64,000 nucleotides of DNA from Candidatus Omnitrophota bacterium (GCA_015494465.1 WGBD01000001.1:25030-89029); one strand, 5' to 3'. Positions 547-47,318 are shown, numbered from the stretch's first letter. Numbers and translations: made by a program. The notes: generated by a model from the sequence alone, not told the origin.

Positions 547-1031
547 ATCACCCTCTCCAGATGACCGGAACCGTCGGAAGAGATGTAAAAGAGATACCCC
601 TTTACATCCTCGCCAATTCCCCGGGAGAGTATCTCCGCGTACCTGCGCACCTGCTCTGCGTGATCCTGTCGGGGAGATGAAACCTTGTAATCCACCACCG
701 CAGACCCGCCCGCACGCCTCAGGAAAAGATCCACCCGGAACCTCTGCCCCCTCTCCCCGAGGATAGGGACCTCGCAAAAGACCTGAGCACCCTCCACAAG
801 ACGCAACAACGCACCAAAGCCCTCCGAGGCCTCCAATGCCCCAAACAAGGACAGCAACCTCTCCCGAAACTCCTCCCTCAAGCCGTAAGGGAGCATATCC
901 CCAACTGCCCTGTCAACCGCGCCGGTGAGATCTCTATCCCCTGAAAAGTAGGCCTCAAGGGCCCGGTGGACCAACTCCCCGAACCGCCTCTCCTCCCAGC
1001 CGACTACCTCCTCATGCCTTATCCTAATCAT
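543..1031 (-). CDS. RecB-family PD-(D/E)XK nuclease domain protein (AddA/RecB C-terminal-like)
   Basis: Motifs GELVHRALE, VDLFL, VVDYKVSSPRQDHAEQVRRY match RecB nuclease motifs (H..E, D, DYK, Q...Y); start overlaps helicase stop by 8 nt in a different frame. Confidence 0.6.
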   Translation of the reverse strand: MIRIRHEEVVGWEERRFGELVHRALEAYFSGDRDLTGAVDRAVGDMLPYGLREEFRERLLSLFGALEASEGFGALLRLVEGAQVFCEVPILGERGQRFRVDLFLRRAGGSAVVDYKVSSPRQDHAEQVRRYAEILSRGIGEDVKGYLFYISSDGSGHLERVI

Positions 1032-3534
1032 TCGCTCTCACCTCACCTCCGTCTTTAACCAACATGGGCCTTATCACCTCCTGCCAGGAGAAGACATAAC
1101 GGGATGGATCGGTGAGGAAGAGGGTCAACTTCCTCTTTGCCCTCGTCAGGGCCACGTACAAAAGATTGACATCGTCCCAGATGCGCAGGTGGGATTCGTT
1201 GCGGTAAAGTTCCCGCAGGGCAGGATGGCGCTTGGCCATGTTGGAATTGACGTAATATACCCGTATGTTCTCTCCCGGATCCCAGAAGAGATTTCCCTGT
1301 AGGCCCGGGCTGCGGTTCTCTCCTATTTTCACATCCAGAAACGGCAGAATCACCTCGTCGAACTCCAATCCCTTTGCGGAGTGAATGGTCATAACCCTCA
1401 CTGCTGAAGAAGCAAACGGAAGTGCCACCCGCTCGGCCTCCACCGGACTGTCCTCCTGATACTCCCAGAAGCGCAGAAATTCCTTCACGAAGGCACCGTT
1501 CCTGCTCTCCCAGTCCCAGAGGAGGTCCAGAAACGCAGATACAAACAGGTCCTGATCCGGGAAATTCTCCCTTATCCTCAACCTATCAATCAAATTCACC
1601 ACCGTGCGATAGATACTGCCCTCCACCGCCGAATCCAATACTTCCCACACCAGTTGACGGAAATAACCGCTCCCCCGCAGGCGTAGTTCCTCCTGCCAGT
1701 AGGAGAGTGGTTTGCCGGTAAAACAGGCCCAGACCTCCGAGATAATAATCCCCTTCAAAAAGAGATCCTCCTCGGGATAGGCAAGACAGCGAAGGAAGGT
1801 AACCAAGGCCATAACCACCGGATGCCCCACCAGAGTCATGGACTCCTCAGAGATGGCCGATATTCCCTCAACCGTCAGGCGGGAAATGACCTTCCTTGCC
1901 TCCTCCCGCCGTCTCACGAGTATCGCCTTCTCCCCCTCCGGACTGTTTTTCAGATAATCCACCAGTTTCTCTATCAACACATCTTCGTAATCCGACCACG
2001 ACAGGGAAGGATCCCCCTGCACCAGCAGAGAATCCACCTGCCCCTCCTCTTCTTTGACCGGCCTCTGCACCACCGCCTCCTCCGAGAAGACCCTATCCAT
2101 ACGCAACAGGACATCCGATTCAGTTTTATCCTCAGACAACCTGTCCACTATCCCGCTGAACAACTCGTTGTTAAAGGCAACAATCCCTTTGGCACTGCGC
2201 CAGTTACGATCCAAAACAAATTCCCGGAAATCAAACGGAAAGGCCTCCCTCAACATACCAAACATATCCGGATGACTCCCCCGCCAGCGGTATATCGTCT
2301 GCTTGGGATCGCCCACGCAAAACAATAAGCCACCGCTGGCAAGGGCCTCCTCAAAGATGGGCCGTAGGGCAGACCACTGGGAGAGACTCGTATCCTGAAA
2401 CTCGTCTATGAGAAAGTGCGTGTACCTTCCGAAGCGGGCAGAGATACGCTCGGCTACCAGATGGGGATCAAGGTTCGCTATGTCCAACTGGATGAGCGGA
2501 AGATAGGTTATGTCCTTCCGGCGACGCAGGTCGTCAAGCCCCCTCTTGAACGCGGAGTAAACGTACATAAAAGGTGCAGGGAAGGATCGACTAAAGGCCT
2601 CATCCAGACGATTAAAGGTCTCCAGAAGACTCAACCACATCTCGTAAAGTTCACGGGCGGGGTCTTCTGCCACCCTGCCCTTGAGCACACCCCTGCGAAA
2701 GGCCTCGTAGTCGGCGTAGGTGAGACTGAAGAATGTCGTCTTCACATCCTTCACCGACGCCAATATAGACTCACTGAGCCCTTCCAATGCCTCCCGAGAC
2801 CTTTTAGTCAGTTTCACCCTCAACGCATCTGCCCGACTCAGGAACGCATCCCTGAGACGCAGGACCTCCCTGATCAGGCCCTTAAGAGAAGTCGGAGTAA
2901 TGGGTTCTAGTTCCCTGCCGAGATGCGACTGCTTCTCCAGATAGACAGGAAACAGCCACTCCGCATAGCCTATCGGATCCCATCCCCGATAGACCGCCAA
3001 AGAGCGCGAAAAGTAGCCCACGAATCTGTAGATAGAGCGCAATAAAGTGCGATCGCTCTTAGCCCTCTCCAAGGCATGCGATACGATGAGGTCCATATCC
3101 GAACGGATGGACGTGCGCATAGCAGAATAAGGCGACAGGCCCAATTCGAAAGAAAAAGACATCCTCAACTGATTCAGAAAACTGTCTATCGTCTGGATGC
3201 GAATCCGTGAATAGTCAAAAACGAGGTCGATCAAAACCCTACCTGCCTCCTCTCGGACCTCATCCTCCGGCAGATCCAACAACTCCGCAAACTCCCCTGC
3301 CCTGTCCCCATACACCACCTCCATAAGGGTATCAATCACCCGCCTGCGCATCTCCTCCGCAGACTTGTTGGTGAAGGTAATAGCCAAAATAGAATCGGGA
3401 CCAATCCCTTTCAGGAGGAGGGAGATGTAAACCGCAGTTAAGGTATAGGTCTTCCCCGCCCCCGCCGAGGCAATAACCGACACCACCCCCGGCGCAGGCT
3501 TAGTACAATGCCGAACTATTTCTTTTAGGACCAT
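1024..3534 (-). CDS. UvrD/PcrA-family superfamily 1 DNA helicase
   Basis: Walker A ASAGAGKTYT, DEFQDTS, motif VI LLYVALTRAKRKL; ORF track gives GTG start at 3660 but ATG at 3534 is preceded by TATAAT and avoids overlap with upstream gene. Confidence 0.75.
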   Translation of the reverse strand: MVLKEIVRHCTKPAPGVVSVIASAGAGKTYTLTAVYISLLLKGIGPDSILAITFTNKSAEEMRRRVIDTLMEVVYGDRAGEFAELLDLPEDEVREEAGRVLIDLVFDYSRIRIQTIDSFLNQLRMSFSFELGLSPYSAMRTSIRSDMDLIVSHALERAKSDRTLLRSIYRFVGYFSRSLAVYRGWDPIGYAEWLFPVYLEKQSHLGRELEPITPTSLKGLIREVLRLRDAFLSRADALRVKLTKRSREALEGLSESILASVKDVKTTFFSLTYADYEAFRRGVLKGRVAEDPARELYEMWLSLLETFNRLDEAFSRSFPAPFMYVYSAFKRGLDDLRRRKDITYLPLIQLDIANLDPHLVAERISARFGRYTHFLIDEFQDTSLSQWSALRPIFEEALASGGLLFCVGDPKQTIYRWRGSHPDMFGMLREAFPFDFREFVLDRNWRSAKGIVAFNNELFSGIVDRLSEDKTESDVLLRMDRVFSEEAVVQRPVKEEEGQVDSLLVQGDPSLSWSDYEDVLIEKLVDYLKNSPEGEKAILVRRREEARKVISRLTVEGISAISEESMTLVGHPVVMALVTFLRCLAYPEEDLFLKGIIISEVWACFTGKPLSYWQEELRLRGSGYFRQLVWEVLDSAVEGSIYRTVVNLIDRLRIRENFPDQDLFVSAFLDLLWDWESRNGAFVKEFLRFWEYQEDSPVEAERVALPFASSAVRVMTIHSAKGLEFDEVILPFLDVKIGENRSPGLQGNLFWDPGENIRVYYVNSNMAKRHPALRELYRNESHLRIWDDVNLLYVALTRAKRKLTLFLTDPSRYVFSWQEVIRPMLVKDGGEVRAND

Positions 3535-3632
3535 AGGGTTATTATACAGCAATGAGATCCTAGCCCAACAACGAAACTGTCCGGGGAAGGAGGTGTAAGG
3601 CCCCGGACAACTTAATATGGCCTTTAGAAGCG

Positions 3633-4148
3633 TTATCGGTGTCTTCTCCTCCCAAACCACACGAAGCCGTTTTCGTCGATGTAATACTTTTGGAAGGCAA
3701 ACATATAAGGATGGTCAAAGGAGACGAAGTGCCATTGGCCACTCTGACTAATCCTTATCACATTTGACATCGTAACGAAGTCCAGTTGCCAACCCTGAGG
3801 GCCTTTTCTCAAGAAGAAAGGGGCATACTTTAGATCCTGTGGGTAATAGATGACCGCATACCTGCCTTTTATGGCAATCTTAAAAGGGACTCCCTCGTAT
3901 ATTCGCATATTATCCTGTTGGGCGTCGGTCACCGTCCAACGCCTGAAGAACTCTTTGGTCTCGTCGGTGTAGATGTCAAGGTCCGGGTCCTTTACGTGGA
4001 GACGACAGGCCTCCAGATAGCGTTTCAGGGTAAACTCTGGCCTGGATTGGGCACGGAAATAACTCTTATCAAATTCTCTGGCCCATAAGGTAAGACCGAT
4101 CCCAAGCACGAGCAGACACAAGATTACAGAGCTACCTCGCTTCATCAT
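3633..4148 (-). CDS. hypothetical secreted/periplasmic protein
   Basis: 171 aa ORF with N-terminal signal-peptide-like segment MMKRGSSVILCLLVLGIGLTLWA; no family recognised. Confidence 0.5.
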   Translation of the reverse strand: MMKRGSSVILCLLVLGIGLTLWAREFDKSYFRAQSRPEFTLKRYLEACRLHVKDPDLDIYTDETKEFFRRWTVTDAQQDNMRIYEGVPFKIAIKGRYAVIYYPQDLKYAPFFLRKGPQGWQLDFVTMSNVIRISQSGQWHFVSFDHPYMFAFQKYYIDENGFVWFGRRRHR

Positions 4149-35133: not shown

Positions 35134-35207
35134 CAGGCCTGGAGGGATTCGAACCCCCAACCCGCGGTTTTGGAGACCGCCGCTCTGCCAGTTAGAGCTA
35201 CAGGCCT
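35134..35207 (-). tRNA. trnW: tRNA-Trp (anticodon CCA)
   Basis: Minus-strand 74 nt AGGCCTGTAGCTCTAAC...GGTCTCCAAAACCGCGGGTTGGGGGTTCGAATCCCTCCAGGCCTG; 7-bp acceptor stem, TTCGAAT T-loop, anticodon loop CTCCAAA; no encoded CCA tail. Confidence 0.9.
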
Positions 35208-35379: not shown

Positions 35380-35452
35380 AGCCCACGACCGGAATCGAAC
35401 CGGTGACCTCATCCTTACCAAGGATGTGCTCTACCGACTGAGCTACGTGGGC
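35380..35452 (-). tRNA. trnT: tRNA-Thr (anticodon GGT)
   Basis: Minus-strand 73 nt GCCCACGTAGCTCAGTCGGTAGAGCACATCCTTGGTAAGGATGAGGTCACCGGTTCGATTCCGGTCGTGGGCT; acceptor GCCCACG/CGTGGGC, anticodon loop TTGGTAA. Confidence 0.9.
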
Positions 35453-39449: not shown

Positions 39450-40338
39450 ACCCCAGCTCCCTTATAAGATCGGGATCGTTCATCCAATCCTCGTCTACCT
39501 TGACCCACAGATCCAGATGCACCTTCTTGCCAAACAACAACTTCAACTCCTTCCTGGCCCTCGTGCCCGCAGCCTTAATGAGCTGTCCCTCCCTACCAAT
39601 AATTATACCCTTGTGCCTGTGCTCCTTGGTAATCACCACTGCCTTTATATATATAAGGTCTGGCCTCTCTTCCCTAATCTCCTCAACCACCACCGTAAGA
39701 TAGTGGGGGATCTCCTCGCGCAAGAGGTTAAGGAATTTTTCTCTAATTACCTCTGCCACAAAGAGTTTCAACGGAAAATCCGTCTTCATGTGCTCGGGAT
39801 AGTAATAGTGATCCGCAGGAGGCAAGAGCTCAAACAGGGCATCTATAACCTCATCTACCCCTTCTCCTCGAATAGCGGAGACCGGGATAAAGTACTTGGT
39901 AATCTCCTTCGTCTCCTCGATGTAGTCGTTCACAAAGCCCTTACCCTTGTCCTTTTTATTGAGGGCGACCACCACCGGCTTGGAGACCTCCTTGAGGGTA
40001 TCAATGATAACCCGCTCCTCCTGCCCAATCTTGTCGTGGATGTCCACCACATAAAGGACCGCATCCACATTCTGCAGGGCAGTGAAGGCAGTGTTGTTGA
40101 ACCGCTTAGCCAAGGGAAAGCGTATGAGATTTATCCCCGGGGTATCCACGAAAACGATCTGTCCCCGGTCATCGGTGTATATTCCCCTCACCTGATGGCG
40201 GGTGGTCTGGGGAACCGGAGATATAATAGAGACCTTGTGATTCAATATAGCGTTCAGCAGGGTAGACTTCCCCGTATTGCATCGTCCCACTATGGCAACA
40301 AACCCAGCCTTTTTGGACATAGCGGTATATTCTATCAC
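39439..40338 (-). CDS. era: GTPase Era
   Basis: G1 GRCNTGKST, G3 DTPG, G4 NKKD, C-terminal KH domain; TAGAAT 9 nt upstream of ATG without Shine-Dalgarno. Confidence 0.93.
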   Translation of the reverse strand: MIEYTAMSKKAGFVAIVGRCNTGKSTLLNAILNHKVSIISPVPQTTRHQVRGIYTDDRGQIVFVDTPGINLIRFPLAKRFNNTAFTALQNVDAVLYVVDIHDKIGQEERVIIDTLKEVSKPVVVALNKKDKGKGFVNDYIEETKEITKYFIPVSAIRGEGVDEVIDALFELLPPADHYYYPEHMKTDFPLKLFVAEVIREKFLNLLREEIPHYLTVVVEEIREERPDLIYIKAVVITKEHRHKGIIIGREGQLIKAAGTRARKELKLLFGKKVHLDLWVKVDEDWMNDPDLIRELGYAV

Positions 40339-40378
40339 AAAAGAGTAGAATCCTCCCCACTAATCCACCCCCGGATCT

Positions 40379-40416
40379 ATGACACAGATTCTTCCAGAAA
40401 GATTTTGTCTCATTTC
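40379..40416 (+). repeat. copy B of the 38-nt element, antisense to flanking genes
   Basis: ATGACACAGATTCTTCCAGAAAGATTTTGTCTCATTTC in the 309-nt spacer between the small membrane protein gene and era; opens plus-strand ORF 40379..40711. Confidence 0.6.
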
Positions 40417-40647
40417 CCAGAGGTCACGGACAAAAAACTATAGGAAAAACGAACGAGAAGACATAGTACAGGCCCATCCAGGTCCTATAACGAAACAGAC
40501 AGCAGATTGCCCTCTGATCGTTTTTAATCCACCTCCGTGTCCTAAAAAAGGAGAGAAAAGAGGCAACCGCCCGCTGAATCCCAATGCGAACTTTATTTTT
40601 ATTTCCGGAGCCCGTTCTCTTATCTCTGCATCACCTAGATCTCACTT

Positions 40648-40968
40648 CTATCCCCTAAGGCCCTGCCAAATACCCCAACCTATCAGTACCAAAACAAAAA
40701 AAACGAGGTAGGCCACAGCGAGAATAAATCGCATCCGGGCGATAGCCCTCGCCCCTTCGACCTTAGGGGAGTCCATCTTCTCTCCGAAAAGGATACGCAA
40801 AACAATCCCTGTTCTGCCCGGAGCGATATCGGCGATACTTTCCGGTCTGCCTAATCTCCCCCACAGATCGGACCCTTCCTCTCTCATCAGACGGATAAGC
40901 CTTTCCACTGCTTGCAGATACCACACAAAAAGCCCAAACCCTATAAATACCACTGCAAAACTAAACAT
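40648..40968 (-). CDS. hypothetical small 2-TM membrane protein
   Basis: 106 aa with two hydrophobic helices; 16 nt downstream of TPM-PDZ gene on same strand. Confidence 0.45.
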   Translation of the reverse strand: MFSFAVVFIGFGLFVWYLQAVERLIRLMREEGSDLWGRLGRPESIADIAPGRTGIVLRILFGEKMDSPKVEGARAIARMRFILAVAYLVFFVLVLIGWGIWQGLRG

Positions 40969-40983
40969 CCTCCCACCTTCTAG

Positions 40984-42492
40984 CTAAAAACAACCTCTCC
41001 TGTCGGTCCTTTCCAGGACGAGCTCTATCTTCTTCCTCTCCTTCAAATCCCGCAGTATCTCTAATGCGATTCTATCTCCCGGTCTGTGCCTGCGTATGAT
41101 GTCCAGAAACTGCCTCGGGAGCAATTCACCGTAAGGACCTTTTCTGCCGTCAACGGTTAGAATGATATCGCCCGCCTTCAACCCTGCCTCGTCAGCAGGA
41201 CTGCCCGGACACACATCAAGCACAACGGTTGAGGGCACACCTGCGTACTTTTCTTCTACCTGGTTCGTCATCGCGATGTATGCCCCAATCCAAACGCGCG
41301 GAGGCCTCTGGTAATGCTCATATATGGAAAACACATCCCTGGCATTCGGCATCTCTGCCAGCAGGTCGGACCTCTTCCTCAACGACATCATACGCGGATC
41401 CAATGTGTAATCATTCATAAGGACTTCCACATAAGGGTAAAGCCAGGCATCGTTTGCCCAGTGGACATACGGTCCGCCGAAGACGAGTCCCCGGGCCATT
41501 GCATCCAAGTCCATCTGCCAGCCCTTGTCCGTTTTTTCTATGAAGTACGGTGGAAGTTTTGCCATCTTCATGTAATCCGCATCCGGATGAAACACCACTG
41601 CCCACTTGCCCTTCTGTCTCACCTCATAACTAACGCCATCCCAGGCCTGGGCCTCGGCTCGTCTCTGGCCGGTAGTGGTGTTCCAGTACCTGAAGAATGC
41701 CTTGGTGCGCTCGTTGAAGAGGTCCACGGAATAATCCGACAAATTCATCGTGCAGAATTCCAGATAGCGCCTGAAGGCAAGTTCCGGAGTGGGTTGGGCA
41801 GAGAAGTACTCCTTCAACTCCTTGGGCGTTTGGGGGCGCGGTCTCCTGAGGGCGGATCCAAAGTCGAATCTCCCTTTTGCGCCTCCACCACCGGAGTAGT
41901 GGCCTATCCTTAAGCGCTCCTTTATCTGCCTCACATCAACGCCCCTATCCTGCATACGGTATATCCTGTAGACGAAGTTCTCTATACTGGCCAGAAAGCC
42001 TTTCTCCCAGTCCGCCTGTTCAAGAAACTCGTTCAGTATCTCCCTCTCCACCTGGCCTACATACCTATCCGTAAACACCGCCTCTAAGTCATAACCGATC
42101 TCTATCTTCACCTGTTTGGTCCGCCAGTCTATCAGTATCAGGACACCCTTCTTACCCTGAGTGCTCCTGCCTATCTGCCAGCGGGTAAATATGTCCGCGG
42201 TATAGGTGGTAATGTCCTTTGGAGCCACGGAGGGCACCACCATCACCACGAAGTCTATGTCAAAGGCCTTACGAAGGTTTTGCCCCATTTGATTTATCTC
42301 TCTCACCACATCCATTGGGACCACACCGACGAAATCAAAGCAAAAGATCTCCTTACCCTTGGCATCCTTGGGCCTCCTCGCCGGGACACTTCCGCGTTTG
42401 TGGGCATGGGAAAACCGTTCGTAAGCCCAAAATCCAAGGCCGGAAAGCATCACGAGGAGCAATCCAATCAGTACAACCCGACCGATCTTCAT
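40984..42492 (-). CDS. membrane-anchored TPM-domain protein with C-terminal PDZ domain
   Basis: N-terminal TM; TPM/DUF477-like block FDFVGVVPMD...VLILIDWRTKQVKIEIGYDLE; about 250 aa unassigned; C-terminal PDZ GSPADEAGLKAGDIILTVDG. Confidence 0.7.
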   Translation of the reverse strand: MKIGRVVLIGLLLVMLSGLGFWAYERFSHAHKRGSVPARRPKDAKGKEIFCFDFVGVVPMDVVREINQMGQNLRKAFDIDFVVMVVPSVAPKDITTYTADIFTRWQIGRSTQGKKGVLILIDWRTKQVKIEIGYDLEAVFTDRYVGQVEREILNEFLEQADWEKGFLASIENFVYRIYRMQDRGVDVRQIKERLRIGHYSGGGGAKGRFDFGSALRRPRPQTPKELKEYFSAQPTPELAFRRYLEFCTMNLSDYSVDLFNERTKAFFRYWNTTTGQRRAEAQAWDGVSYEVRQKGKWAVVFHPDADYMKMAKLPPYFIEKTDKGWQMDLDAMARGLVFGGPYVHWANDAWLYPYVEVLMNDYTLDPRMMSLRKRSDLLAEMPNARDVFSIYEHYQRPPRVWIGAYIAMTNQVEEKYAGVPSTVVLDVCPGSPADEAGLKAGDIILTVDGRKGPYGELLPRQFLDIIRRHRPGDRIALEILRDLKERKKIELVLERTDRRGCF

Positions 42493-42527
42493 CTCCTACC
42501 CCCTACACTGCCGGTCCCCGGAGACCT

Positions 42528-43118
42528 CTAAAACTTTACCTCCGCGGGCTTGTTAGCCTGATTCGTTGCCTTGAAAAACTCCTTAGGCCTAAAGCCCAAT
42601 ACCTTGGCAATGATCTTGTGAGGGAATATCTCCAGGGTTCGGTTGTAGTCTGCTACAGCATAGTTGTACCTCTCCCTCGCCACTGCGATGCGGTTCTCGG
42701 TGCCCTCTAACTGGTCCTGAAGGGCCAAGAAGTTCTGGTCGGCCTTGAGGTAGGGATAGTTTTCCACCAACGCCAACAACCTCTCAATCTCCCCATCTAA
42801 TACGCTCTTTGCCTCCATCAACTTCTCAGGAGAGGCACCGTTACCCTTAAGGAGATTTTCCATCATCGCCCTGGTCTTGGTCACCCCAAGCAGTACCTCC
42901 TTTTCGTGAACCGCATAACCCTTTACCGTATTAACGAGATTCGGTACCAGATCCAGCCTCCTCTGGAGTTGGGCCTCTACATCCCCCCAGGCAGCCTCTA
43001 CTGCCTTCTGCTTTGTTACGATGGTGTTATAGGCAACCACAAACCAGCCCAAAATCACCGCAACGAAGATCAATACAACCACACCAACCGCACCACTGCC
43101 TACCCGATTCATTCTCAT
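42528..43118 (-). CDS. lemA: LemA family protein
   Basis: 196 aa, N-terminal TM then LemA-type helical domain (...AWGDVEAQLQRRLDLVPNLV...VENYPYLKADQNF...RERYNYAVADYN...). Confidence 0.8.
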   Translation of the reverse strand: MRMNRVGSGAVGVVVLIFVAVILGWFVVAYNTIVTKQKAVEAAWGDVEAQLQRRLDLVPNLVNTVKGYAVHEKEVLLGVTKTRAMMENLLKGNGASPEKLMEAKSVLDGEIERLLALVENYPYLKADQNFLALQDQLEGTENRIAVARERYNYAVADYNRTLEIFPHKIIAKVLGFRPKEFFKATNQANKPAEVKF

Positions 43119-43135
43119 CTCAGACCTCCTTTTTA

Positions 43136-43900
43136 TTAGGCCCCGTAATAACTAACTTCCTTGGCCTCTCTCACCACAATACTGCCCGGGAAGGCCTTGG
43201 TAAAGACCTTATAGACCTTCACCGCACGGTTGTAGGCAAGCCTTGCCTTCGTGAGCATCTTCTCGACTTCCCTGATCTGCAATATCACGGTCGCGTAGTC
43301 CTTGCCGAATTCCGTAATAGGATAGGACTCCACCAATGCAAGTAGTTTGGACGCACCCGCATCTACCTCGTCGAGGTTGACATTCCGGTAATTGCTGAGT
43401 TTGGTCCGCAACTTGGCAATCTCCTCCAGCAAGGTTCTCTCTATCTGGGCGTGGCGCTCGGCAAGGGATATGGCCTTCTCCAAGAGGTCCACCTTCTGCT
43501 GATAAAAGGCCAAGACCGACGCCCAGGCCTCGTTGACCCTCTCCTCCAAGCGTATCTTTTGGTTCCTGAGATGGATAAAGAACAACTGCCAAGCGGTGAT
43601 GATAAACACCGCCAGGGCAACGATTGAGAATAAGAGCGCCCTATCCATGTCTCTCACCTCCTTCACGACCCACCAGATCCCAACCCCGACCACTAGGGCC
43701 AGCGGGATAAACCGCAAAAAGCTCAACACCGGATAAGCCCCTTTCTTCTCACCCTCTCCGGTGGCCTCTATCAACCTCTCCAGAACCTGCTCCTTCTTTA
43801 CCTGAGAATCCAGTATCGCCTGCTTCAGGGCGGAGGCCTCCTCAGGGGATATACTCCCCTTCATCAGCATCTCGTCTATTCTCCTCATCTCCTCCTGCAT
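43136..43900 (-). CDS. LemA-like protein with N-terminal SHOCT-like motif
   Basis: N-terminus RIDEMLMKGSISPEEASALKQAIL resembles SHOCT; TM segment; C-terminal LemA-like region (...VESYPITEFGKDYATV...ARLAYNRAVKVY...). Confidence 0.6.
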   Translation of the reverse strand: MQEEMRRIDEMLMKGSISPEEASALKQAILDSQVKKEQVLERLIEATGEGEKKGAYPVLSFLRFIPLALVVGVGIWWVVKEVRDMDRALLFSIVALAVFIITAWQLFFIHLRNQKIRLEERVNEAWASVLAFYQQKVDLLEKAISLAERHAQIERTLLEEIAKLRTKLSNYRNVNLDEVDAGASKLLALVESYPITEFGKDYATVILQIREVEKMLTKARLAYNRAVKVYKVFTKAFPGSIVVREAKEVSYYGA

Positions 43901-43910
43901 ATGTCCCCTC

Positions 43911-44270
43911 CTACAACTCCTTTATCAACTTGCTAGCCACTTCCGCCGAGATATTCCCCTTATCCACCTGATTGAGGATGTACCGGATCTCACCAGCCCT
44001 ATGCTCCTCCACCAGATCCCTGAGGCGGGCAATCACCCTGTCCAGACGCAGGCGTACGGTGGGATAACTTACCCCCAACTTCCGGGCCAGATCCTTTAGT
44101 TTCCCATCGCAGAGCAGGAACTCCTCTATCAGGCGCTGGTCCTCGTAGGGCAACCTGCTCAAGGCGCTGAGGGAGAACAGACCCGAGATCTCCGTCCCGC
44201 AGTCCTGACACCCGACCGCGCTCACCCTCACCTTACCACCGCAGAACGGGCACCTGTCCATCAACCTCAT
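43911..44270 (-). CDS. DUF2089-like zinc-ribbon/HTH protein with C-terminal SHOCT-like motif
   Basis: CPFCGGKVRVSAVGCQDCG zinc ribbon, HTH-like LARKLGVSYPTVRLRLDR, C-terminal ILNQVDKGNISAEVASKLIKEL; strong SD GGTGAGGAG and TTGACT-N16-TATATT upstream. Confidence 0.6.
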   Translation of the reverse strand: MRLMDRCPFCGGKVRVSAVGCQDCGTEISGLFSLSALSRLPYEDQRLIEEFLLCDGKLKDLARKLGVSYPTVRLRLDRVIARLRDLVEEHRAGEIRYILNQVDKGNISAEVASKLIKEL

Positions 44271-44460
44271 CTCTCCTCACCTCATCTGGAAATATAACAA
44301 AAATTAAACCAAAGTCAACAAATTGATTGAAAAAATGCAACAAAATTGACGAATTAATTTAACAATATTGAATGGCTACTCCATTCCCCCTCCCATCCAC
44401 CCCTCAGCAAGGCTCTCAATCCTAACTCTGGTCCTATATATGTGTTAAAATTAATCCGTA
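44271..44460. promoter_or_regulatory. AT-rich divergent promoter region between DUF2089 gene (minus) and comM-rpoN (plus)
   Basis: 190 nt far more AT-rich than surroundings; direct repeats CAACAAATTGA / CAACAAAATTGA / AATATTGAA; minus-strand TTGACT-N16-TATATT plus SD GGTGAGGAG; plus-strand TAAAAT 10 nt before comM ATG. Confidence 0.5.
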
Positions 44461-45990
44461 ATGGCAGGTATAGTTAAAGTACACAGTATCGGAATGTTTG
44501 GGGTGGAAACGGTACCGGTTGAGGTGGAGGTGGACCTCTCCAGCGGACTGCCGAGCGTAGCGATCGTCGGACTTCCTGATTCAGCGGTAAGAGAGAGCAA
44601 GGAGCGGATAAGGTCCGCCCTAAAAAACACCTTCAACACCCTACCCAAAGGCAGGTTGACGATAAGCCTTGCCCCTGCAGATGTCAAAAAGGAAGGGGCA
44701 TTCTTTGACCTGCCGATAGCCCTGGCGATCCTTGCCCACCTCGAGGTCCTGCCCCGCCAAACCCTGCAGGAGTTCACCATCATCGGAGAACTGTCTCTGG
44801 ACGGGAAGGTGCGCAGGGTAAACGGGGCCCTGGCCATAGCAGACGAGGTGGCAAGGTCGGCCAAATTGCCTCAGAAACTTATCCTACCCCACGCCAACAG
44901 GTTAGAGGCCAGCTTGATAAGAGATCTTCAATTATACCCGGTCAAGAGTCTCGCGGAGGCAGTCGAGGTAATTCTCGATCCGGAACGACCTCCTTATTCC
45001 CGGCAGGGAGAACCAGACATAGAAAACGAATCGCTTAACGAAGACCTGGACTTCGCGGAGGTGAAGGGGCAGGAGACCGCCAAGCGGGCATTGGAGATAT
45101 CCGCTGCCGGTGGACACAATGTCCTTATGGTCGGCCCCCCGGGAACGGGCAAGACCATGCTCGCCCGCAGGCTCCCGACCATCCTTCCACCCCTTACCGA
45201 GGCCCAGATAGTGGAGACGACCAAGATATACAGTATAAAAGGGCTCCTCGGGGAAGACGGCATCGTCCGCAGGCCACCCTTCCGAGCCCCTCACCACAGC
45301 AGTAGCGCCCCTGCAGTAGTAGGCGGAGGCAATCCCCCGATGCCCGGTGAGATAAGCCTCGCCCACAACGGGGTGCTGTTTCTAGACGAGCTGCCGGAAT
45401 TCCGCAGGGATGTCATAGAGGCCCTGAGGGAGCCCATGGAAGAGGGATACATCCGCATCTCTCGGGCAGGCACTACCACCAGGTTTCCCGCCAGATTCAT
45501 AATGATTGCAGCGATGAACCCCTGCCCCTGCGGTTACCTCAACAGCACCCGTCGGACCTGCGTGTGCGAAGAGTACCAGATACAGAGGTACCGCAGAAAG
45601 GTCTCTGGACCCATTCTGGACAGGATAGACCTACACATAGAGGTCAACGACATAGAACCGGAGAAACTACAAGCCAGTGAATCCTCGGTGGATTCCGCCT
45701 CTATGAGGGAACGGGTCATAAAGGCACGGGAACGCCAGAGGTGGCGCTTTCGTGATACCCCGATAGAGACCAACTCCCAGATGAGCAACAGACTCATAAG
45801 ACTCCACTGCAGACTGGACGATAAGGCCCAGGAGATGCTCAAACAGGCAGTCCTGCGCCTGGGACTGTCCACCCGGGCCTACACCCGCACCCTCAAGGTG
45901 GCAAGGACCATAGCGGACCTCGAGAACAGTGAGCAGATAAAGACCACGCACATACTCGAGGCCCTCACCTACCGGTTTTCTTGGCAATGA
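44461..45990 (+). CDS. comM: Mg-chelatase-like AAA+ ATPase YifB/ComM
   Basis: 509 aa; N-terminal Lon-protease-like domain, Walker A GPPGTGKTMLA, C-terminal Mg-chelatase domain. Confidence 0.9.
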   Translation: MAGIVKVHSIGMFGVETVPVEVEVDLSSGLPSVAIVGLPDSAVRESKERIRSALKNTFNTLPKGRLTISLAPADVKKEGAFFDLPIALAILAHLEVLPRQTLQEFTIIGELSLDGKVRRVNGALAIADEVARSAKLPQKLILPHANRLEASLIRDLQLYPVKSLAEAVEVILDPERPPYSRQGEPDIENESLNEDLDFAEVKGQETAKRALEISAAGGHNVLMVGPPGTGKTMLARRLPTILPPLTEAQIVETTKIYSIKGLLGEDGIVRRPPFRAPHHSSSAPAVVGGGNPPMPGEISLAHNGVLFLDELPEFRRDVIEALREPMEEGYIRISRAGTTTRFPARFIMIAAMNPCPCGYLNSTRRTCVCEEYQIQRYRRKVSGPILDRIDLHIEVNDIEPEKLQASESSVDSASMRERVIKARERQRWRFRDTPIETNSQMSNRLIRLHCRLDDKAQEMLKQAVLRLGLSTRAYTRTLKVARTIADLENSEQIKTTHILEALTYRFSWQ

Positions 45991-47318
45991 AGCAGAAGCT
46001 GACCCAGACCACATCCATCCGACAGGAGATACACCTCACTCCCCAGATGCAGCAGTTTCTCAAGGTCATACAAATGCCTGCATTGGAACTGTACCAGTTT
46101 ATACAAACCGAACTGGAGAACAATCCCCTCCTAGAGGCGGAGATGGACTACGAGGTGCTACAGGACCAACCCACGCCGCCAGAAGACATAACTGAGACCC
46201 TGCCCGATCCCGACACCCTCTTCACCCAAGACCTCTACAATCCCGTAAACGAGCAATACGACTACGGAGACAGCGACCACCTTCGTCCTGAACCAACCTG
46301 TAGGGAGAACTGGCGGAGTCAGGCAGTAAAAGACCTCAGGTTAACACTGGATGAGAGAGAGGCCAAGATCGCAGAGTACATAATATTCAACCTCGACGAG
46401 GAGGGCTTTCTCAAACTCACCGACGAAGAGATCGCCCAGGCTCTGGGGGTTGAGGAAGAGGAGGTCCAATCGACACTTGCCCACCTGAGACAGATACTGC
46501 CTCCCGGTCTCACCGCCCGCACCGTGAAGGAGTGCCTCCTCCTGCAGATAGAACGACGGGAAGGCAGGGAAAGTCCGACCTACCGCATAGTAAACGAGGC
46601 CTTCTCCGACCTCATACGCAGAAGATACAGGAAGATCGCCCGAGAATTAAAGCTGCCCCTAAAACAGGTCAACCTCGTCGCCCAGAACCTTTCTCGATAC
46701 CGCACCCGTCCATTGGTCGCCAAGGACATCCCCGCCTGCGCCTACCCCGAATACGAGATAAAGGTAGTGGACGGACAGATAGTGATAGAGAGGATATCCA
46801 CCCTGCCCGTCCCAAGGCTTCGTTTAAATCAAAGGTACATAGAGACCCTGCGCAATTCCAAGGACAGATCTGCCCGCAAGTTCCTCTCCCATTACCTGCA
46901 AAGGGCAAAGGCAGTGATACAGGCCACCCGAGAGCGGGAGGAGAAACTGCTGTCTCTCCTGCAATTCCTGGCCCAGCGCCAACGGGAATTCGTAGAGAGT
47001 GGACCTGCTTACCTAAAGCCCCTCACCATGAAACAGGCCTCGCGTACCACCGGCCTGTCGGAATCAACCATCTCCCGACTGGCTAATAACAAGTTCGTGC
47101 AGGTCCCGTGGGGATGCATCAGGATAAAGGACTTCTTCCTCAATCCCCTCTCCTACACCAACGACACACCCAGAGATATGATATTGGGAATCATCAGGGA
47201 GATCATAGAATCCTCGGACAAACGCTTATCCGACGAGAAGATACGGGAACTCCTCAAGGAACGCGGTATACAACTATCCCGCAGGACAGTGAACAAATAT
47301 AGGCACATGCTGGGATGA
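45981..47318 (+). CDS. rpoN: RNA polymerase sigma-54 factor
   Basis: 445 aa; region I, core-binding region, C-terminal RpoN box RRTVNKYR; start overlaps comM stop by 10 nt. Confidence 0.92.
   Translation: MAMKQKLTQTTSIRQEIHLTPQMQQFLKVIQMPALELYQFIQTELENNPLLEAEMDYEVLQDQPTPPEDITETLPDPDTLFTQDLYNPVNEQYDYGDSDHLRPEPTCRENWRSQAVKDLRLTLDEREAKIAEYIIFNLDEEGFLKLTDEEIAQALGVEEEEVQSTLAHLRQILPPGLTARTVKECLLLQIERREGRESPTYRIVNEAFSDLIRRRYRKIARELKLPLKQVNLVAQNLSRYRTRPLVAKDIPACAYPEYEIKVVDGQIVIERISTLPVPRLRLNQRYIETLRNSKDRSARKFLSHYLQRAKAVIQATREREEKLLSLLQFLAQRQREFVESGPAYLKPLTMKQASRTTGLSESTISRLANNKFVQVPWGCIRIKDFFLNPLSYTNDTPRDMILGIIREIIESSDKRLSDEKIRELLKERGIQLSRRTVNKYRHMLG

Follow-up and report, generated by a model that had tools for sequence, protein, structure and literature searches.

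A putative membrane-linked regulatory module joining a DUF2089-type regulator to LemA and TPM–NTF2-like–PDZ proteins in Candidatus Omnitrophota

Five genes, g1 to g5, occupy the minus strand of a segment (positions 40648-44460, promoter region included) of a 64,000-nucleotide stretch of DNA from a Candidatus Omnitrophota bacterium (GCA_015494465.1, WGBD01000001.1:25030-89029; hereafter the window, numbered from its first letter). The first four, encoding a DUF2089-type regulator, two LemA proteins and an exported protein with TPM, NTF2-like and PDZ domains, probably form a functionally coupled, autoregulated and membrane-linked module. Their order recurs across phyla, the regulator and its neighbour carry the same SHOCT-like domain, and the LemA, TPM and NTF2-like parts are found elsewhere fused in one chain with a protein kinase. 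Whether the module operates by tether-and-release sensing across the envelope is, in our judgement, evenly balanced, and envelope-protein stress is put forward only tentatively as its signal, periplasmic or outer-membrane protein stress being favoured.

Gene order, paired SHOCT-like domains and a kinase fusion

The five genes are arranged as follows (aa, amino acids).

43911-44270, minus strand: g1, 119 aa, DUF2089-type regulator
43136-43900, minus strand: g2, 254 aa, SHOCT-like head, two-span hairpin and LemA domain
42528-43118, minus strand: g3, 196 aa, canonical single-pass LemA protein
40984-42492, minus strand: g4, 502 aa, TPM, NTF2-like and PDZ domains
40648-40968, minus strand: g5, 106 aa, small two-span membrane protein

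Successive genes are separated by 10, 17, 35 and 15 nucleotides (nt), and inspection of the sequence reveals a purine-rich ribosome-binding stretch before each of them. These five minus-strand open reading frames (ORFs) agree with an earlier reading of the window made without database searches (hereafter the sequence-only reading), which had described five co-directional genes with spacers of 35 nt or less.

A scan of one genome per species returned 14 loci with full-length relatives of g4, to which contigs from close homologues were added. The order DUF2089, SHOCT-LemA, LemA, TPM–NTF2–PDZ is found in the Omnitrophota loci L002, L162, L164 and L165, and a TPM–NTF2–TPR paralogue is inserted between LemA and the PDZ protein in L004, L007 and L010. 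The same order, including the TPR paralogue, is present in the complete genome of a cultured member of the Desulfobacterota, Desulfosarcina widdelii PP31 (L013; NZ_AP021875.1, about 6,359,245-6,364,334). Further complete modules were recovered by a metagenome scan seeded with the regulator (L084, L085 and L093), as well as minimal three-gene versions composed of DUF2089, SHOCT-LemA and TPM–NTF2–TPR (L099 and L144). In LemA-linked DUF2089 operons, every downstream TPM protein on the contig contains the NTF2-like domain, and all are exported. Flanking genes vary, from comM and era in the window to a LacI-family regulator and a secretin in L002 and L164; given the same order amid unlike flanks, the module is therefore kept together while its surroundings change. 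The joint occurrence of the genes thus extends to further genomes, of more than one phylum and in varied contexts, which answers a check proposed with the sequence-only reading.

Its proposal of a five-gene module stands for three or four of the genes. The product of g5 has the two hydrophobic spans expected of the small two-transmembrane protein that had been described, and searches of Pfam, NCBIfam and PADLOC assigned it to no family. The closest relative, L162, has in the corresponding place a gene whose product is 71% identical, and no such gene follows the one for the TPM-PDZ protein in L002 and L165; g5 is therefore a real but lineage-specific addition, outside the conserved module.

The domains of g1 and g2 are listed below.

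44160-44252, minus strand: g1 residues 7-37, four-Cys zinc ribbon (Zn_ribbon_DUF2089, PF22747, 39.1 bits, cut-off 27.6)
44022-44153, minus strand: g1 residues 40-83, sigma-region-4/GerE-like helix-turn-helix (DUF2089-HTH, PF09862, 64 bits, cut-off 33.4)
43914-43991, minus strand: g1 residues 94-119, C-terminal SHOCT-like domain (SHOCT-like_DUF2089-C, PF22746, 24.8 bits, cut-off 27; hhalign)
43775-43900, minus strand: g2 residues 1-42, SHOCT-like head (PF22746, E=0.022; 29.5 bits, above cut-off, in the L004 orthologue)
43565-43741, minus strand: g2 residues 54-112, two-span hydrophobic hairpin (hydrophobicity)
43169-43528, minus strand: g2 residues 125-244, divergent LemA domain (Pfam LemA, 56.5 bits, cut-off 26.2, profile positions 1-125 of 149)

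The last 26 residues of g1, ...EIRYILNQVDKGNISAEVASKLIKEL, and residues 1-42 of g2, which begin MQEEMRRIDEMLMKGSISPEEASALKQAIL, look alike by eye. Aligned as profiles with hhalign, 20 regulator C-termini and 23 partner N-termini match with 96.9% probability (E=1.9e-10), and PF22746 is matched at E<=1 by 19 of the 23 orthologous or analogous partner N-termini (best 4.8e-11). The profile-profile comparison was needed because a strict hidden Markov model built from the partner N-termini left the C-terminal tail of g1 undetected in a background of 10,607 ORFs. By these comparisons the g1 tail and the g2 head are the same SHOCT-like domain, in line with the two SHOCT-like motifs that the sequence-only reading had placed on the regulator and on a LemA paralogue. 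A word-indexed homologue search with g2 itself returned 4 close relatives.

The two copies also co-vary. Among 57 non-redundant DUF2089 loci, sorted by a strict criterion for the SHOCT-like tail, the next protein starts with the same domain in 27 of 30 cases when the regulator has the tail and in 6 of 27 when it is scored as tail-less (Fisher p=1.7e-7, uncorrected for phylogeny). The six regulators in this second group are full-length proteins (119-131 aa) that failed the strict tail criterion. Partners that share the head differ in the remainder of the chain, which may be a two-span LemA protein (17 loci), a single-pass HEAT-repeat protein, a multi-span protein, a soluble protein of 127 aa, a Toastrack-like protein or a zinc-ribbon membrane protein. 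In L003, the DUF2089 gene is gone, and the first LemA protein there lacks both the SHOCT-like head and the first span. This co-variation fits the prediction of a matched docking pair, or at least of some connection between the DNA-binding and the membrane parts, whether functional or, as had been suggested from the duplicated motifs, physical; binding itself is predicted.

Across loci L082-L161, a SHOCT-tailed DUF2089 protein is followed by a SHOCT-headed product irrespective of the remaining body of the partner. After the tail-less DUF2089 proteins, which are 85-104 aa long and come mostly from human-gut contigs, the next product is a multi-span protein of 195 aa without the head.

A different arrangement of the membrane components was found in P0263, a protein of 785 aa from a representative library. 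Its Ser/Thr kinase domain (Pkinase, residues 1-281) is followed by a basic stretch and a hydrophobic span (about 311-328), then by a LemA-like segment, a TPM domain (476-595) and an NTF2-like domain (614-763), all in a single chain. Judged from its sequence, this is the layout of a standard bacterial receptor kinase. In this fusion LemA, TPM and the NTF2-like domain would therefore act together, opposite the cytoplasmic signalling domain, as its input, which suggests that LemA–TPM–NTF2 is a sensor input module. By analogy, the output in place of the kinase would be the DUF2089 regulator in the window.

The regulator and its candidate operator

The zinc-ribbon cysteines of g1 (Cys7, Cys10, Cys21 and Cys24) do not vary among six orthologues, and its SHOCT-like C-terminal segment is kept across orthologues. 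With its zinc ribbon, helix-turn-helix and C-terminal SHOCT-like domain, g1 is by sequence a member of the DUF2089 regulator family. The zinc-ribbon and helix-turn-helix parts of the original assignment are confirmed by Pfam; the SHOCT-like end falls just under the Pfam cut-off and is backed by the profile-profile alignment. An extracytoplasmic function sigma factor was considered and rejected, matches being limited to region 4 and below threshold (TIGR02937, 24.3 versus 42.9; Sigma70_r4_2, 23.5 versus 25.7); as it is only 119 aa long, g1 cannot hold sigma region 2.

The divergent spacer between g1 and comM (44271-44460) has a GC content of 35.8%, falling to 23% in a 91-nt core, compared with 53.9% for the window, and contains a promoter-like site, in keeping with the AT-rich promoter region noted earlier. 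Two features are located there.

44291-44318, minus strand: promoter-like site, TTGACT, 16-nt spacer and extended -10 TGnTATATT (10 of 12 consensus matches, plus TG)
44300-44308: putative half-site of an operator within the -35/-10 spacer, reading AAAATTAAA (TTTAATTTT in the orientation of the genes)

From the -35 element to the ATG the sequence hardly varies among the window, L162, L164, L166 and L002, the encoded proteins being only 65-80% identical. The half-site at 44300-44308 is the sole match to AAWRTTAAR within the 64-kb window. In the upstream regions of LemA-linked DUF2089 genes, the motif AA[AT][AG]TTAA[AG] occurs in 28 copies spread over 14 of 16 non-redundant regions, compared with 3.2 +/- 1.8 copies, and 13 at most, in 1000 shuffles; the motif was defined post hoc, after inspection of the data, so that this significance is overstated. 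Typically, the -35/-10 spacer holds one copy, 35-44 nt ahead of the ATG, and a second is found 26 or 32 nt further upstream. Equally AT-rich leaders of other DUF2089 clades hold 5 copies in 4 of 12 regions and 3 in 2 of 12, and within entire loci, 10-17 kb long, paired copies occur nowhere but upstream of the regulator, a placement that is striking all the same. This enrichment of AAARTTAAA at promoters is indirect evidence that g1 may bind DNA sequence-specifically and control transcription. Since the site lies in the spacer, free g1 may act as a repressor, the direction being a guess. A single motif of the AAARTTAAA type is also found in the gap of about 430 nt between the SHOCT-LemA and plain LemA genes of two metagenome loci (L084:8484 and L093:3410), where it could mark an internal regulated promoter.

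The neighbours of the five genes are, from their translations, housekeeping genes: era, an RNA methyltransferase-like gene, comM and rpoN. The comM/yifB-like gene (44461-45990, plus strand) and rpoN (45981-47318, plus strand) are divergent from the module promoter and share a 10-nt overlap, which suggests translational coupling. On the other side, g5 is separated from era by a 309-nt spacer (40339-40647, 44.7% GC) in which a terminator scan and RNA folding (z = 0.55) gave no convincing terminator. Rfam searches of 40200-44600 in E-value mode and of the whole window in gathering mode gave no match at the module. The window's only matches at the gathering threshold are two tRNA genes (35134-35207 and 35380-35452, both on the minus strand).

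The LemA proteins and the exported TPM–NTF2-like–PDZ protein

Both proteins that had been called LemA on sight exceed the Pfam cut-off of 26.2 bits for that family: the divergent domain of g2 with 56.5 bits, and g3 with 186.5 bits over profile positions 1-149 of 149. A single N-terminal transmembrane segment and an N-tail containing K and R residues characterise g3. Identity with MamQ, said to be alone among LemA proteins in having a link to a cellular process (PMC4902198), was rejected, given that g3 and g2 reach 94.1 and 42.7 bits against a cut-off of 250 bits (NCBIfam NF040966).

The orientation of the LemA domain of g2 admits of two readings. In each of the 13 LemA-type partners examined, the SHOCT-like head is separated from the LemA domain by exactly two hydrophobic spans, so that head and LemA domain would lie on the same side of the membrane. 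An extracytoplasmic LemA domain is suggested in turn because canonical LemA proteins have basic N-tails, their TPM partners are exported, and LemA lies opposite the kinase in the fusion. Either the LemA domain of g2 would be cytoplasmic, with only the inter-span loop facing outward, or one of the spans would not cross the membrane. The loop has 8 residues in the window and is TPR-like, with about 100 residues, in L004, L007 and L010. Positive-inside counts give conflicting answers, and published statements on the topology of LemA and MamQ are contradictory, the MamQ papers (PMC4902198 among them) not deciding the matter.

The features of g4 are as follows.

41980-42336, minus strand: residues 53-171, TPM domain (Pfam, 78.5 bits, cut-off 22.1)
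41377-41880, minus strand: residues about 205-372, NTF2-like domain, after a Gly-rich linker
41005-41301, minus strand: residues about 398-496, PDZ domain (PDZ_2, 39.3 bits, residues 417-486; PDZ_6, 38.8 bits)
40987-41004, minus strand: conserved hydrophobic C-terminal tail, RRGCF

The TPM domain and the C-terminal PDZ domain of the sequence-only reading are therefore both recovered by Pfam, and its account of the rest of the protein needs revision. The roughly 250 aa that it left unassigned consist of the Gly-rich linker and the NTF2-like domain, and the protein is not simply anchored by a transmembrane segment: N-termini across the g4 family are signal peptides, lipoboxes or signal anchors, and g4 is therefore exported.

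Residues 172-400 of g4 have no match in Pfam, and a profile search of the middle domain against the sequences of the PDB gave a best E of 0.4. AlphaFold2 is confident for the protein, with a predicted local distance difference test score (pLDDT) of 83.5 for the full length and 88.9 for residues 198-372. In the predicted structure, the middle region is an NTF2-like domain with an alpha+beta cone fold, representing a new family tied to TPM. An exhaustive profile search of 1.84 billion proteins gave 341 representatives of this family at E<=1e-3, in nearly all of which it follows TPM directly, from about residue 180-210 onwards; the family size is taken from this search, a word-indexed search with the alignment of the middle domain having recovered only 2 proteins because its index is limited. 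The members that were sampled have PDZ, TPR, TPR plus DUF1266, or nothing further at the C-terminus. The TPM-to-PDZ region is strongly conserved in an alignment of 30 sequences, with F230, Q233, R242, Y243, W270, Q276, E280, W325, Q326 and D328 among the invariant residues. About 46 full-length clusters of the g4 family were found in a collection of 5.8 billion proteins, from Omnitrophota, Desulfosalsimonas and Chitinivibrionales, and are named there only 'TPM domain-containing protein'.

Foldseek confirms the alpha-beta-alpha fold of the TPM domain, whose structural neighbours include BA41 (5anp, target-normalised TM-score 0.82), 7tbr (0.80) and AtTLP18.3 (0.77). Characterised TPM domains differ in activity (PMC13456599), and any phosphatase, ATPase or metal-binding activity of g4 is putative. 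The best structural neighbours of the PDZ domain are the PDZ domains of DegP, DegS, MucD and AlgW, stress-sensor domains that recognise aromatic C-terminal peptides. Its W-[IL]-G-x carboxylate-binding loop is intact, W401 and G403 being invariant, and most relatives of g4 have an extra PDZ domain that is missing from the window copy. Family C-termini read RGYF, KGYF or RGCF, with a minority of EGF or EGI. An HtrA protease was rejected, as Pfam finds no protease domain and the match to degP_htrA_DO (38 bits versus 416.2) covers the PDZ part only; nor is membership of a magnetosome or protease family indicated by NCBIfam, whose matches to MamQ, MamE and HtrA were far below threshold.

Relatives of g4 are found in other settings as well. 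Loci L015-L037, from Desulfobacterota such as Desulfopila sp. IMCC35008, Desulfofustis glycolicus and Malonomonas rubra, encode TPM–NTF2-like lipoproteins of 330-380 aa devoid of PDZ or TPR; LemA neighbours were looked for at these loci and none was found, DUF2089 is likewise absent, and the contexts vary. Secreted proteins of unrecognised role lie between or after two TPM–NTF2 genes at L007:4121-6436, L012:2816-7938 and L010:9653-12344, and may be clients or further components; the set in the Omnitrophota loci includes a BamB-like PQQ_2 beta-propeller protein of 771 aa. Within the window, the ORF at 3633-4148 (minus strand) encodes an exported stand-alone paralogue of the NTF2-like domain (171 aa, 36% identity over 107 aa, no match in Pfam) and adjoins a UvrD/AddA-like helicase gene (1024-3660) and a PD-(D/E)XK nuclease-like ORF (543-1031).

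Proposed mechanism, alternatives and known systems

In the mechanism that we propose, the exported g4 protein would monitor the periplasm at the outer face of the inner membrane, together with g3 and the LemA domain of g2. The PDZ domain of g4 would bind envelope proteins at exposed segments that are C-terminal or unfolded, or else its own ...G-[Y/C]-F tail, a possible autoinhibitory or chain-forming ligand; the pocket of the NTF2-like domain may hold a further ligand, and in sister systems the TPR paralogue would stand in for PDZ. Spanning the membrane, g2 would offer its SHOCT-like head to the cytoplasmic g1, and the shared domain would either hold g1 at the membrane or let it go. Free g1 would then bind AAARTTAAA sites, one of them between the -35 and -10 elements of its own promoter, and would thereby set transcription of the operon. 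The physical contacts, the direction of regulation, the signal and the topology of g2, like every step beyond the domain assignments, are what we infer. DUF2089 regulators composed of zinc ribbon, helix-turn-helix and SHOCT-like domain have been predicted to transduce membrane signals (PMC11237479), and indirect support comes from Flavobacterium columnare, where both lemA and a TPM gene were up-regulated once signal peptide peptidase had been deleted (PMC13236525). In a broader and less probable scheme, LemA, a widespread family not known to have a biochemical role beyond MamQ, would be the transmembrane transducer of an envelope-sensing system hitherto unrecognised: the TPM–NTF2-like PDZ/TPR scaffold would sense periplasmic clients, the cytoplasmic outputs (a SHOCT-tethered regulator or a kinase) would be interchangeable, and a pair of SHOCT-like 'handles' would dock DUF2089 to the sensor encoded next to it.

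Several observations weigh against this mechanism. The operon contains no protease or other obvious output enzyme. The g2 head and the g1 tail of the window each fall under the Pfam cut-off for the SHOCT-like domain, their co-variation carries no phylogenetic correction, and the operator motif is AT-rich and post hoc, with one exact copy in the window. The span count of g2 conflicts with the signs of an extracytoplasmic LemA domain. A representative SHOCT domain assayed in vitro did not self-associate or oligomerise (PMC3581485), and Ravi et al. (2024) favour membrane anchoring by SHOCT-like domains over SHOCT-SHOCT pairing (PMC11237479). Finally, TPM domains have been assigned phosphatase, ATPase and adapter roles, and one of them is cytoplasmic (PMC13456599).

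Some of these points lend themselves to a rather unlikely alternative, in which LemA–TPM–NTF2–PDZ would be a constitutive chaperone or adapter for assembly and maintenance in the membrane and periplasm, g1 a local autoregulator, and the SHOCT-like domains separate anchors to the inner leaflet. TPM proteins do act as adapters or assembly factors, with precedents in photosystem II and the CIII-CIV supercomplex (PMC13456599; bioRxiv 10.1101/2024.10.28.620569); a chaperone-like TPM alongside anchoring SHOCT-like domains was proposed by Ravi et al. (PMC11237479), the lack of self-association of the SHOCT domain agrees with separate anchoring, and PDZ and TPR are generic client-binding modules. Separate anchoring, however, leaves the match between the tail of the regulator and the head of the next gene product unexplained, several classes of partner are soluble (the L091 and L132 types) and need no membrane anchor, and in the kinase–TM–LemA–TPM–NTF2 fusion, where TM is the transmembrane span, the module becomes the input of a signalling enzyme. 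The chemistry assigned to some TPM domains raises instead the improbable case of a periplasmic enzyme acting on a lipid, cell-wall or phosphorylated substrate, with a TPM phosphatase or nucleotidase, a catalytic or small-molecule pocket in the NTF2-like domain, LemA as a dock and PDZ for targeting. Reported TPM activities are weak and inconsistent, AscF binding neither metal nor nucleotide (PMC13456599); moreover, the operon holds no substrate-related gene, and the C-terminal modules swapped on the scaffold (PDZ, TPR) are protein-binding.

The varied genomic contexts of the module in related genomes, together with SHOCT domains described in some prophage-encoded proteins, could also point to a mobile accessory system, such as anti-phage defence or abortive infection. 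This we regard as very improbable: none of the five proteins has a significant match in PADLOC-DB 2.0 (best E 0.0014-0.055, over short stretches), the neighbours are housekeeping genes, neither mobility genes nor repeats were found at the borders, and the GC content of the module equals that of the window. As for the null explanation, a fortuitous adjacency of five unrelated co-directional genes, it is refuted by the recurrence of the order, amid unrelated flanks, in Omnitrophota, in Desulfobacterota and in many metagenome contigs, as well as by the fusion of LemA, TPM and NTF2-like domains in one chain and by the SHOCT co-variation.

To our knowledge, LemA and TPM are very common bacterial domains without established function, and no role has been demonstrated for SHOCT since its description in 2013. 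The tether-and-release mechanism would place all three in one testable scheme of sensor, membrane component and transcription factor joined by matched SHOCT-like domains, and the operon offers a first testable role for the LemA family. AAARTTAAA is a candidate operator sequence open to direct test, and the complete system in the cultured Desulfosarcina widdelii PP31 makes experiments feasible. If true, the proposal would add a new class to the sigma-E, Cpx, Rcs, Psp and Lia envelope stress responses, mainly in poorly studied phyla such as Omnitrophota.

Parts of this arrangement have counterparts in known systems. Pairs of lemA and TPM genes (PF04011, PF04536) recur widely in bacteria with no assigned role. 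The window shares with them a single-pass LemA gene directly upstream of that for an exported TPM protein, but adds NTF2-like and PDZ/TPR domains, a second LemA protein with a SHOCT-like head and an extra transmembrane span, and a dedicated regulator. Literature searches for LemA with TPM, TPM_phosphatase, SHOCT or DUF2089 returned no mechanistic paper among the searchable papers. Membrane sequestration of transcription factors is exemplified by Mlc with PtsG and by PutA, where, as predicted here, the activity of a soluble DNA-binding protein is set through its binding to a membrane protein from a nearby gene; no domain is shared with those systems. As in DegS/RseA/sigma-E and AlgW/MucA, a periplasmic HtrA-type PDZ domain would be coupled to a membrane protein controlling a cytoplasmic transcription factor, with C-terminal aromatic peptides as probable ligands. 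Unlike in those systems, there is no protease domain, anti-sigma fold or component of regulated proteolysis here, and g1 is no sigma factor. The association of MamQ with MamE and MamP (PDZ) and with MamA (TPR) likewise combines a LemA-fold membrane protein with PDZ/TPR proteins, and both Omnitrophota and Desulfobacterota include magnetotactic members; g2 and g3, however, score far under the MamQ cut-off, and no other magnetosome genes lie nearby. TPM and NTF2-like proteins (YdjH and YdjG) are also associated in a membrane-stress operon, the PspA operon ydjFGHL of B. subtilis (PMC11237479), where they are separate proteins encoded with PspA and a band-7 protein, whereas here they form one exported chain with PDZ, linked to LemA and without PspA.

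There is also a likeness in overall logic with the DUF2089 systems of Ravi et al. (2024, mSystems; PMC11237479), in which a zinc ribbon, a helix-turn-helix and a SHOCT-like domain are combined with membrane partners in PSP/Lia-like signalling, SHOCT-like domains being proposed to assemble membrane-proximal signalling complexes in Toastrack, LiaF and PspC contexts. The three-part g1, the adjoining SHOCT-bearing membrane partner and the predicted passage from a membrane-proximal signal to transcription are common to both. Here, however, the partner is a LemA paralogue accompanied by LemA and TPM–NTF2–PDZ proteins, and Pfam finds no Toastrack, LiaI-LiaF-TM, PspC or PspA in g2-g5 at E<=1; conversely, LemA is mentioned neither in the text of that paper nor in one of its supplements. 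The claim of the sequence-only reading to an undescribed system thus gives way for DUF2089–SHOCT regulators with membrane partners, published in 2024, and holds for the LemA–TPM–NTF2 set. What is new here is a LemA/TPM–NTF2–PDZ sensor set, including a new NTF2-like family, placed on a known type of DUF2089/SHOCT signalling.

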